A stretch of DNA of 64,000 nucleotides from a virus: IMG/VR virus record IMGVR_UViG_3300050196_000085, positions 5,046 through 69,045 of that record; one strand, given 5' to 3'. Positions 499 to 9,261 of this stretch are shown here, in pieces (positions within the stretch are counted from its first letter, which is position 1; each line of letters begins with the position of its first letter). The notes below the pieces were generated by a model. It made no database searches. It saw only the letters and a list, made by a program, of their open reading frames with translations, and had not been told where the DNA came from. Made by a program: the position numbers and the translations under genes.

Positions 499-785
499 CA
501 CTTTTCTCCTAAGCGTACTTGTCTGTTGATGGATGAATAGCTCCGATCCACGAGAGCAGAAATGAGCTTAGCTCTACACCTCTCTGACCGGTCTTGGGAA
601 ACAGCATTACCTGTTTATTACTCAAGCAGCTTTTTTTGGATAACCACAGTCCAGTGGGTTATTAAGAGATCTTACATCTCTCCAAGAAATTTGAATTATT
701 TTAGTGTGCCGCTGGACGCCGTTGTTCCCATTAAGCCAGTCTCGTCTGACTCACACACTCCATGAATATGAGATCGTCATCTCTT

Positions 786-852
786 GATACGACAGGATTT
801 GAACCTGCATCTCGCTCTTCCGAGCAGGAAGTCACCAATGCTTCTCCGTATC
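786..852 (-). pseudogene. Degenerate tRNA-like sequence
   Basis: GATACG/CGTATC acceptor-like stem and T-arm GCAGG-TTCAAAT-CCTGT. The anticodon arm has an aberrant 4-nt loop (GCTC-GGAA-GAGC) and there is no encoded CCA. Confidence 0.55.
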
Positions 853-902
853 TATTCATGGCCTTGGGTCCGTCGAACGGTTTCCCTTGGTCTAATTGAA
901 TT

Positions 903-1425: not shown

Positions 1426-1509
1426 TGGCCTTCTCGGTTGGAATCGAACCAACGACCGATCGGATGGGTAACTCCCATCGGATAGCTGTACCAACTAAGC
1501 TACACAGGG
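1426..1509 (-). ncRNA. tRNA-like RNA with an elongated anticodon arm and weak acceptor stem
   Basis: TA-GCT-TAGTTGGTAC-AGC D-arm, arm ATCCGATGGG-AGTTA-CCCATCCGAT, variable loop CGGTC, T-arm GTTGG-TTCGATT-CCAAC and GCCA end. Only ~4 of 7 acceptor pairs form. Confidence 0.6.
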
Positions 1510-1519
1510 GTATTAGTTA

Positions 1520-1886
1520 AATCTGGTGGTTGTTACGGGACAAGGGAACCAACCCTGCTGAGCTATCCTTAGAGCTTCCCATTTGTCTCAGGCCACTTCC
1601 GCGAGGTGCCGGTCAGGTGCATTACTTCCTGACCGGCGTGAGCATGTAATGCTCCAGCACAGAAGTCATCTGTCACTGGCACGCTCCCTCTTCTCGGAGG
1701 AGCTTTCACCCCAATTCAATCGACAGGAACGGTCCCCACTGCTCCATTCTTCAGGTTGGGTCAATGGGGTTTCACACAGTCGTCTGTGTCTCTTTTCTAC
1801 CCCAACCTACTGTCGTCGCCGACAGGCTTGTCTTCTGATCCGGGCCTAACACCCATTGCAGCGAGACACCCTGTCGAAGTTTCGAG
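1520..1886 (-). ncRNA. Long highly structured RNA of unknown class
   Basis: Successive stems: CTGTCG/CGACAG, GGTTGGG/CCCAACC, ACACAG/CTGTGT, GCTCC..GGAGC, GAGCAT/ATGCTC and the 10-bp GCCGGTCAGG/CCTGACCGGC. Ends in ...CAACCACCA. Confidence 0.5.
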
Positions 1887-1954
1887 GAAGCTGCTCTAAC
1901 ACTGAGCTACCGGGGCCGTAGCCCCGTTCCCGAGTTGAACGGGCGACCTTCTTC
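1887..1954 (-). ncRNA. Circularly permuted tRNA-like element (3' half precedes 5' half)
   Basis: GAAGA-AGGTC-GCCCG-TTCAACT-CGGGA-ACGGGGC-[TACG]-GCCCCGG-TA-GCTC-AGTGTTA-GAGC-A-GCTTC; every segment has the canonical tRNA length. Confidence 0.65.
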
Positions 1955-2038
1955 TTCTGGTCTGGTGGAGTATCATGTCTGGCCAGCTAAGGGCGTATGC
2001 CCACCATGATAGCCGCTAAGCGTATCCCTCAAACCAAT

Positions 2039-2306: not shown

Positions 2307-2392
2307 GGACATTTAGAAGACGGTTATGACCCTACGGTTTCGTCTCATAAAGACTCATCAGATAACCTTTGAAAAGCGAAGGGTCACTGTCC
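2307..2392 (-). ncRNA. Hammerhead ribozyme, type I
   Basis: GGTTAT-CTGATGA-GTCT(TTATG)AGAC-GAAA-CC(GTAG)GG-TC-ATAACC: complete CUGAUGA/GAAA/GUC core and stems I, II and III. Distal GGACA/TGTCC pairing. Predicted cleavage between 2328 and 2327. Confidence 0.9.
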
Positions 2393-2727: not shown

Positions 2728-2804
2728 TGGTGCTCTCGACAGGACTTGAACCTGTAATCTCAGAAATAGAAGTTCCGTGGCCTATCCAGTTGGCCTACGA
2801 GAGC
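2728..2804 (-). tRNA. tRNA-Arg (anticodon UCU)
   Basis: GCTCTCG/CGAGAGC acceptor, GGCC D-stem, CGGAA-CTTCTAT-TTCTG anticodon arm, ACAGG-TTCAAGT-CCTGT T-arm and encoded ACCA. Confidence 0.95.
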
Positions 2805-2821: not shown

Positions 2822-3373
2822 TTAAGCGGTTACAGTGATATTCTTGGTGGCAGTGAATCCACCATCCTGCGAAGTTGCAGTAATGACAGTCGAGCCGTTT
2901 GCCACACGAGTGACAAGACCGGTTGCCGAAACAGTGGCTTTCGTTGGATTACTGGATACCCAAGTGACATTGCCGTTGGATGCGCCGGAAGGCGTCTTGG
3001 TAATGCCAAGTTGTACAGTCGGAGCTGCAACAGTGATCGTGCTGGTTCCACCGGGAGTAATGGCAATGCCAGTCAGAACCACATAAGTGGTATCCTGAAC
3101 AACCGTGATACCAGCCATGTCGGTGATGTTGTTCGGGAACTGAAGCGTACCCGGAACAGCCAAACCAGTGCTGGCATTGACGTGATACAGGGCATCACGA
3201 ACATGTTGGAAGAAGACGTGGTTCACGTCAAATTCCAAATCAGCAATGGCTGGCTCAACATCTGCATGAACGAATTCACCAATCTTGTTGGAACCAGCAG
3301 GGAGAAGATCTCCCTTTGCCTGAATTGTAACCACTTTTGTGGTGTTGTTGAACGCTATCTGATAATTGGCCAT
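2822..3373 (-). CDS. Capsid decoration protein with an Ig-like (BIG2) domain, N4 gp17-like
   Basis: N-terminal NHVFFQHVRDALY motif. C-terminal Ig-like motif VTWVSSNPTKATVSATGLVTRVANGSTVITATSQDGGFTA. Confidence 0.85.
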   Translation of the reverse strand: MANYQIAFNNTTKVVTIQAKGDLLPAGSNKIGEFVHADVEPAIADLEFDVNHVFFQHVRDALYHVNASTGLAVPGTLQFPNNITDMAGITVVQDTTYVVLTGIAITPGGTSTITVAAPTVQLGITKTPSGASNGNVTWVSSNPTKATVSATGLVTRVANGSTVITATSQDGGFTATKNITVTA

Positions 3374-8803: not shown

Positions 8804-9261
8804 TAACCCTCTCCCCAGAATTTGTGACGACCATCGCCGGATTCATTGAGCCAATGTTTCCATTTCAGGTCAAAATAGCAGTTTTCAGGTGCATCAGCGA
8901 ACATGCCTGCTACGTCGTGATGCTTTAGACCTGCAAGGCCACAGCCAATGCAAGTCACCTGAAACTGGAGTTCAGGATGACCACGAGCATAAGCAATGAA
9001 GCCTCTTACGTAGTCTTGGATATCATCTAAACTAAGTGTGTCACCGACAGTGAGACTCTCACGATTCCGACCTTCGTAATTCGGAATGACTTTGAAGCCC
9101 TTGGTGGGAATGGCAAAGCTATCTCCAAAGTGACCATAGCTCAGCCCCCAACGGGCACCACGTTCCTTGTATGCGAAACGAGCAGCACCACCACCGTGGA
9201 TACCGCCTTCGTTACTCCCGAACACAAAAACCATTTTCGAAGTGTCGATTTTGTTCACCAT
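8803..9261 (-). CDS. Conserved phage protein of the FVFGSNxxGxHGxGAA family (A1S_2505-like, macro-like fold by inference)
   Basis: VFVFGSNEGGIHGGGAARFA..SFAIPTK..FQVTCIGCGLAG. Start moved to the ATG at 9261 behind GGAG. Confidence 0.75.
   Translation of the reverse strand: MVNKIDTSKMVFVFGSNEGGIHGGGAARFAYKERGARWGLSYGHFGDSFAIPTKGFKVIPNYEGRNRESLTVGDTLSLDDIQDYVRGFIAYARGHPELQFQVTCIGCGLAGLKHHDVAGMFADAPENCYFDLKWKHWLNESGDGRHKFWGEG

Follow-up and report, generated by a model that had tools for sequence, protein, structure and literature searches.

A candidate YrlA-type tRNA mimic in the RNA island of an N4-like phage that lacks Ro60

YrlA (Y RNA-like) RNAs, known from bacteria and mycobacteriophages, carry a 5′ GNCGAAN0-1G motif, the putative site of Ro60 contact, and an optional V stem-loop, followed by T, AS (acceptor-like, closed) and D stem-loops; a survey placed them no more than 4 kb from Ro60 in 254 bacteria as well as 22 phages (PMC4201824). 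Their tRNA-like domain consists of a T arm, a closed acceptor-like stem-loop and a D arm, and opens via an analogue of the anticodon stem (PMC4201824; 10.1101/312249); a crystal structure was presented by Wang et al. in 2018 (10.1101/312249). In M. smegmatis, where the YrlA acceptor helix spans 7 positions, RNase P cleaves the RNA and CCA is added to it (PMC4201824).

Here we describe an element of the same architecture on the minus strand of a 64,000-nucleotide window, by which we mean the whole stretch of DNA that was analyzed, from a virus record of IMG/VR. The architecture is already known; what is new is the context alone, namely the lack of Ro60 and the N4-like phage. We lean towards the view that this element, which forms part of a structured RNA island of the phage, is a YrlA-type tRNA mimic that acts through its shape and needs no phage Ro60.

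The element and its RNA island

Read along the minus strand, the element comprises a closing stem, a variable loop, a T-arm, a C(UACG)G-capped acceptor hairpin, U8A9, a D-arm and again the closing stem, in that order (Table 1). The sequence-only reading of this locus had described a tRNA in back-to-front order, and direct reading gives a base-for-base match to that description at 1954-1886. Each segment has the length of the corresponding tRNA segment, as had been said, and the pairing then proposed holds for 6/7 positions of the acceptor and 4/5 of the closing stem, to which can be added 4/5 in the T stem and 4/4 in the D stem. The defects are equally real: G7.A66, G49.A65 and a D-loop with one G only. 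When the halves are rejoined in silico through any 7-nt loop, a step that the earlier reading had recommended, ARAGORN recognizes a tRNA of 71 nt, whereas the native order elicits no call.

In the acceptor hairpin, the 3′ strand (1927-1921) and the 5′ strand (1916-1910) flank the UACG tetraloop (1920-1917), and because the C(UACG)G tetraloop seals the acceptor stem a chargeable 3′ end is lacking. The closing helix joins 1957-1951 to CUUCCUC at 1890-1884 with 6/7 positions paired and one A.C, and an A1950.G1891 mismatch lies at the junction; the inner strands are GAAGA (1954-1950) and GCUUC (1891-1887), which correspond to positions 1-5 aligned with 65-69 in covariance model R1 (see below). The GGUC of the variable loop is nearly invariant among 18 viral modules. 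The T-loop fits the tRNA consensus U54 U55 C56 R57 A58, and the D-arm possesses its stem, A14 and G15, with a single G for G18/G19. Nucleotides for the tRNA tertiary contacts U8-A14, G15-C48, U54-A58 and G53-C61 are present. With this layout, the T and D arms are expected to form the elbow of an L-shaped, tRNA-derived RNA.

The anticodon-stem analogue GAAGAAG/CUUCCUC would lead, by way of an internal loop, to a candidate basal helix that pairs at 9/10 positions (7 Watson-Crick, 2 G.U, 1 C.C). This helix is present in the minimum-energy fold of 1992-1852, the energy of which is not significant (z -0.97); the local fold energy around the element is likewise not significant. The whole, spanning roughly 1984-1860, would constitute a stem-closed, Y-RNA-like molecule about 125 nt long.

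Two short motifs flank these helices. The likeness of GAUACUCC to GGNUACUUC was judged against viral loci L047, L037, L048, L101 and L036. In L047, L037, L048, L044, L101, L036 and L039, a GGNUACUUC-like motif precedes the T arm by some 20 nt; it occurs upstream of Ro60-linked and unlinked phage modules alike, and GAUACUCC lies at an equal distance in the window. On the other side, the CUCGAAA heptamer is likely a trace of tRNA ancestry. Similar heptamers are found after the closing strand of L036 and L038 (CUUCUAC and CUCAUAA).

Table 1. Positions, in the window, of the parts of the element and of its neighbors in the island
Feature	Positions	Strand	Remarks
Complete type I hammerhead	2322-2367	-	cut predicted after C2328
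tRNA-Arg(UCU)	2728-2804		island neighbor; ARAGORN, Rfam
Candidate basal helix, 5′ strand GGCCAGACAU	1975-1984	-	partner 1869-1860
GAUACUCC, by-eye likeness to the GGNUACUUC motif upstream of phage modules	1967-1974	-	resemblance only
Closing (anticodon-stem-like) helix, 5′ strand GAAGAAG + A1950	1950-1957	-	direct reading, model alignment
Variable loop AGGUC	1945-1949	-	C48 can form a Levitt pair with G15
T-arm GCCCG-UUCAACU-CGGGA	1928-1944	-	4 base pairs + G49.A65
Closed acceptor-like hairpin ACGGGGC-UACG-GCCCCGG	1910-1927	-	6 G-C pairs + A66.G7
U8 A9 linker (1909-1908) + D-arm GCUC-AGUGUUA-GAGC (1907-1893)	1893-1909	-	direct reading
Nucleotide 26 (A1892) + closing helix, 3′ strand G-CUUCCUC	1884-1892	-	direct reading, model R1
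CUCGAAA heptamer, anticodon-loop consensus (Y32 U33 NNN R37 N38)	1880-1886	-	directly 3′ of GCUUC
Candidate basal helix, 3′ strand GUGUCUCGCU	1860-1869	-	partner 1984-1975
tRNA-like unit	1435-1504	-	Rfam tRNA 23.7 bits
Sub-threshold tRNA-like gene	784-853	-	25.2 bits

The phage genome consists of 73,268 bp and is 99% complete. The phage is N4-like, with an RNAP2 57% identical to the RNAP2 of Schitoviridae from Erwinia, Rhizobium and Klebsiella, and the ORFs that neighbor the element are ordinary N4-type genes. The island is an ORF-poor tract of about 2-2.4 kb (~2820-650, minus strand) downstream of the RNAP2 and Big_2 genes, and it is strongly structured, with 2328-1510 folding at z = -4.76. 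No sigma-70 promoters or terminators were predicted on its minus strand. The element is probably transcribed within a long precursor and subsequently released by RNA processing.

The hammerhead of the island is made up of stem I (GGUUAU/AUAACC), CUGAUGA, stem II (GUCU-UUAUG-AGAC), GAAA and stem III (ACC-GUAG-GGU), and scores 27 bits with Rfam Hammerhead_3, which is under the cut-off. Unrelated leaf-litter contigs match the hammerhead region (2325-2370) with 4-5 differences. The 1504-1435 unit has canonical D and T arms, an arm of ~10 bp with a 5-nt loop instead of an anticodon arm, and an acceptor that is only poorly paired. The 853-784 unit lies within a block conserved in the closest relative of the phage (L003 8522-8728; nhmmer E 4e-21).

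This complete relative, whose RNAP2 is 80% identical, aligns on both sides of the island and lacks window 2697-1343, the 1.35 kb that hold the element; some 215 nt are found there instead. Within this replacement lies a different, non-canonical tRNA-like gene (L003 8094-8213), which has D and T arms, GCCA and an acceptor of 7 bp without mismatch; the place of the anticodon arm is taken by nested hairpins of about 63 nt, and ARAGORN makes no call. Among RNAP2-anchored relatives (36 loci from IMG/VR and metagenomes), the element was found in none. A blastn comparison of the island with GenBank phages gave no match, the exact hairpin occurs nowhere else in IMG/VR, and an element-specific pattern had no hit in JGI metagenomes. 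Strain variation in the leaf-litter runs indicates a clonal population, one AAG deletion excepted: in one low-depth contig, one AAG unit of the GAAGAAGAAG run, which forms the 5′ strand of the closing stem, is missing (window 1948). A search for RNA runs returned no listing.

Covariance searches and related viral modules

ARAGORN, and Rfam at gathering scores, report neither a tRNA nor a tmRNA at the element, the only tRNA that they call nearby being tRNA-Arg(UCU). A permissive Rfam scan of 1780-2060 (281 bases) gave no tRNA match, and no flanking tRNA halves were detectable; it did align 1966-1866 end to end with the YrlA consensus (RF02553), at a score of 22.1 bits versus a cut-off of 69. 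Phage modules adjacent to Ro60 also fall below this cut-off, from which we surmise that the Rfam YrlA model is narrow. With this model, junctions between ordinary tRNA genes arranged in tandem in related N4-like phages score 20-29 bits, so that the 22-bit match is no evidence alone. Chen et al. (2014) had cautioned against this tandem-junction artefact (PMC4201824).

Several other assignments were tried and rejected. For a canonical tRNA, there is no cloverleaf in normal order, no anticodon arm and no free acceptor end, a call being obtained only after artificial rejoining. For a two-piece (permuted) tmRNA, ARAGORN finds no tmRNA, a C-G pair occupies position 3-70 and the D arm is complete. 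There is no U tract 3′ of the hairpin as in an intrinsic terminator, and the large-RNA families of Rfam found no support.

A pattern drawn from the element, TTCRA-N13-CTNCGG-N4-GGTAGCTC, was used with IMG/VR; it fixes only the T-loop, the C-UNCG-G cap and GGUAGCUC at the spacing of the window. This loose pattern yielded 21 viral loci, which represent 18 distinct modules, 2 duplicates and 1 chance match, and in 20/21 the unspecified bases form a T stem and an acceptor hairpin of 6-7 bp. Across the 18 distinct modules, 94% of cells are paired, whereas shuffles reach 72% and slid partners 29-52%. Pairing amounts to 97.6% in the acceptor helix, where 4 pairs covary, and to 100% in the T stem; covariation is also seen at the three inner closing pairs. 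A TROVE/Ro60 protein is encoded by the next downstream ORF in 9/10 loci tested and TROVE is found in 3 further records; a Ro60/TROVE gene is present in the record for 12/18 pattern-derived modules.

The GG-less D-arm of the window was found in 53 viral loci, among which L086, L101 (duplicate L122) and L105 provide 3 more distinct closed modules. Those of L086 and L101/L122 are located 1.3-3 kb from TROVE on the same strand. A GG-less D-loop may thus not be a defect in itself, since it recurs in Ro60-linked modules and in phage tRNAs. The sequence-only reading had known of no phage example. That statement has to be withdrawn, as Chen et al. list 22 phages and a further 22 distinct viral modules were retrieved here overall, 15 of which have a Ro60 gene in the same record. 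TROVE is present in every other record at least 90% complete that holds a module.

Covariance model R1 was built from the 18 viral modules with the window excluded. It matches exactly 1954-1886 on the minus strand, over its full length, with 56.6 bits (E about 1e-15), which places the element beyond chance. One genuine Arg/Lys tandem tRNA junction, too, scores with model R1, at 59.5 bits, and the score alone is therefore no proof of a module; an ordinary tRNA pair is excluded because the flanking tRNA halves are absent, and not because of the R1 score.

Within the genome, neither Pfam nor a profile of 7 phage Ro60 proteins found a match to Ro60/TROVE. No GNCGAAN0-1G motif occurs within 800 nt of the element, and the 2.4-kb island has a single match, located at 1120, which is 830 nt downstream of the module. 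The element deviates at three positions, 49.65, 7.66 and G19, each of them either paired or invariant among the class members, the loss of G19 being seen in Ro60-linked modules as well. Two large records likewise hold modules without TROVE in the contig: L036, an incomplete contig of 127 kb with three modules in a tRNA cluster, and L105, an incomplete contig of 104 kb. Copies without Ro60 may therefore not be unique to the window.

The modules of L036 are at 2801-2884, 2959-3029 and 9031-9114; two of them have 18-nt acceptor loops, and GGAUUA...UUCCUUC precedes each of the three. As in L038, an anticodon-loop-like heptamer and a long basal helix come after the module at 2959-3029. Double modules, in which two units of T-arm, closed acceptor and D-arm are arranged in series within one closing stem, were noted in L032 (5140-5300; duplicate L034), L043 (5620-5780) and L050 (11570-11740). 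These three records are all incomplete and contain no TROVE; L032 adjoins a portal gene.

Origin, function and alternative explanations

Given that there is neither a Ro60 gene nor a Ro60-binding motif, the element is either a Ro60-independent mimic or a decaying relic. The sequence-only reading had proposed an elbow mimic embedded in a longer RNA. That proposal fits, the architecture being that published for the tRNA-like domain of YrlA. The function of the element would most likely be shape-based, the tRNA elbow and the acceptor/T minihelix being offered to host proteins that recognize tRNA. [quoted passage not shown] By such contacts a tRNA-binding factor might be recruited or titrated. The element would be Ro60-independent or served by an unrecognized host partner; it would use no phage-encoded Ro60, in contrast to relatives with a well-covered context, among which the two large incomplete records may be exceptions.

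The 5′ half of the element matches bacterial tRNA-Arg(CCU) at 28/31 positions, although the search pattern was biased toward such a match. A scan of bacterial genomes for YrlA with the same hairpin returned only tRNA-Arg(CCU) genes and chance coding matches. Since the 5′ half resembles tRNA-Arg(CCU) and is followed by CUCGAAA, the module appears to be tRNA-derived. This descent parallels the one proposed for all YrlA RNAs, and it could plausibly have proceeded by tandem duplication with loss of the outer halves.

The same resemblance, with its anticodon-loop-like heptamer, would suit a non-functional relic, whether of a tandem tRNA-Arg-like pair minus its outer halves or of an acquired Ro60-linked Y RNA that is now decaying. 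A faint D-arm-like UUAGCUGGCCAGAC, spaced as would be expected of the lost 5′ half, points the same way, as do the three defects at class-conserved positions, the further degenerate tRNA-like units in the island, the lack of the segment in the closest relative, the length variant of the AAG repeat in the closing strand, and the missing Ro60 gene and binding motif. However, the halves that survive are exactly the mutually pairing ones (6/7, 4/5, 6/7), and the outer halves are unrecognizable in a permissive tRNA scan; neutral decay is disfavored because it does not predict that only mutually pairing halves survive. Moreover, the spacer corresponds exactly to a C(UNCG)G cap, the 20/21 viral matches are bona fide closed modules and not decayed tRNA pairs, and the GG-less D-loop is shared with Ro60-linked modules and phage tRNAs. 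We consider a relic, the main rival reading, somewhat unlikely. Were it one, the turnover of tRNA genes in phage RNA islands would have left the element as an ordinary by-product.

tRNA-like structures punctuate other polycistronic RNAs. The element might similarly be a processing signal, that is, an RNase P (and 3′-end) site punctuating the island transcript, with cleavage inside the UACG loop 5′ of G1916. Its acceptor (7) and T stem (5) add up to a stack of 12 positions, the length gauged by RNase P; a 7-position acceptor helix also characterizes the M. smegmatis YrlA that is cleaved by this enzyme and given CCA (PMC4201824), and the island contains a self-cleaving hammerhead as well as units with CCA-like ends. 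Nevertheless, a cut in the loop would leave both pieces base-paired and free no neighboring RNA, and two A.G mismatches are situated at the acceptor/T junction that RNase P reads, which leaves this role improbable.

A true circularly permuted tRNA gene, whose transcript would be circularized or ligated and recut into a decoding tRNA as the sequence-only reading had also suggested, was already disfavored and is very improbable: the 3′ half does precede the 5′ half with canonical spacing, ARAGORN accepts the rejoined molecule, CUCGAAA could serve as an anticodon loop and the upstream hammerhead would leave ligatable ends, but no gene for the ligase RtcB was found in the phage genome, the hammerhead cut is about 370 nt off the would-be junction, there is no bulge-helix-bulge motif, no discriminator with CCA and no anticodon hairpin, the anticodon CGA would require a class II variable arm, which is absent, and the structural relatives are stem-closed Y RNA modules beside Ro60 genes and not split tRNAs.

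The shape-based, YrlA-type mimic is thus the reading to which we return, and it raises a broader one. That a Ro60-independent branch of YrlA-type mimics exists in phages, comprising the window phage and possibly the modules of L036, L038, L033 and L105, is a tentative proposal that we would rate as unlikely at present. If it were true, the tRNA-like domain would be a free-standing functional unit and not only the effector arm of a Ro60 particle, and the mimic might capture or titrate a tRNA-targeting defense nuclease, RNase P, a modification enzyme or host Rsr. A tRNA-like domain kept in a complete genome without a Ro60 gene or motif would separate the two halves of a Y RNA. It would also add the Schitoviridae to the phages that carry such mimics, and one small RNA in an N4-like phage would be a simple system for asking what a mimic binds.

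Comparison with known systems

Permuted tRNA genes, as found in Cyanidioschyzon merolae and some archaea, and permuted tmRNA share with the element a gene order in which the 3′ half precedes the 5′ half. Both mature to open, CCA-ended, chargeable molecules, in which the acceptor stem is unsealed. tmRNA is further typified by G3.U70, the lack of a true D arm and a tag reading frame; G3.U70 and the tag reading frame are absent from the element of the window.

The modules found in tRNA clusters (L036, L038, L033 and L105) resemble the element in their direct closing stem, long imperfect basal helix, heptamer after the closing strand, tRNA neighbors and lack of GNCGAA. They also have no Ro60 in the contig, in records that are only 6-51% complete. 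They differ in being free of the mismatches of the window and, in all but L105, in having GG in the D-loop.

The Ro60-linked IMG/VR modules (for example L086 3145-3211, L101 2182-2255, L047 and L044) share with the window a closed acceptor hairpin, of 7 bp and often UNCG-capped, and have upstream a GGNUACUUC-like motif, which GAUACUCC of the window resembles; L086 and L101 also share its GCUC-AGUGUUA-GAGC D-arm and direct 5-bp closing stem. By comparison with the element, their TROVE gene is 0.1-3 kb away on the same strand, and several have CGAAG near the 5′ end together with CUUGAYC on the 3′ strand.

From YrlA itself (RF02553), the copy in the window differs in having no Ro60 gene within 4 kb or genome-wide, no GNCGAAN0-1G motif and no G19, in its two A.G mismatches at the T/acceptor junction, and in its N4-like host phage, a group not found among the reported phage hosts of YrlA. 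What the two share is the order of elements, from the variable region through the T arm, closed acceptor stem-loop, UA and D arm to the enclosing helix, without CCA or an anticodon hairpin, and with both the T-loop consensus and the closed acceptor-like hairpin present in the window.
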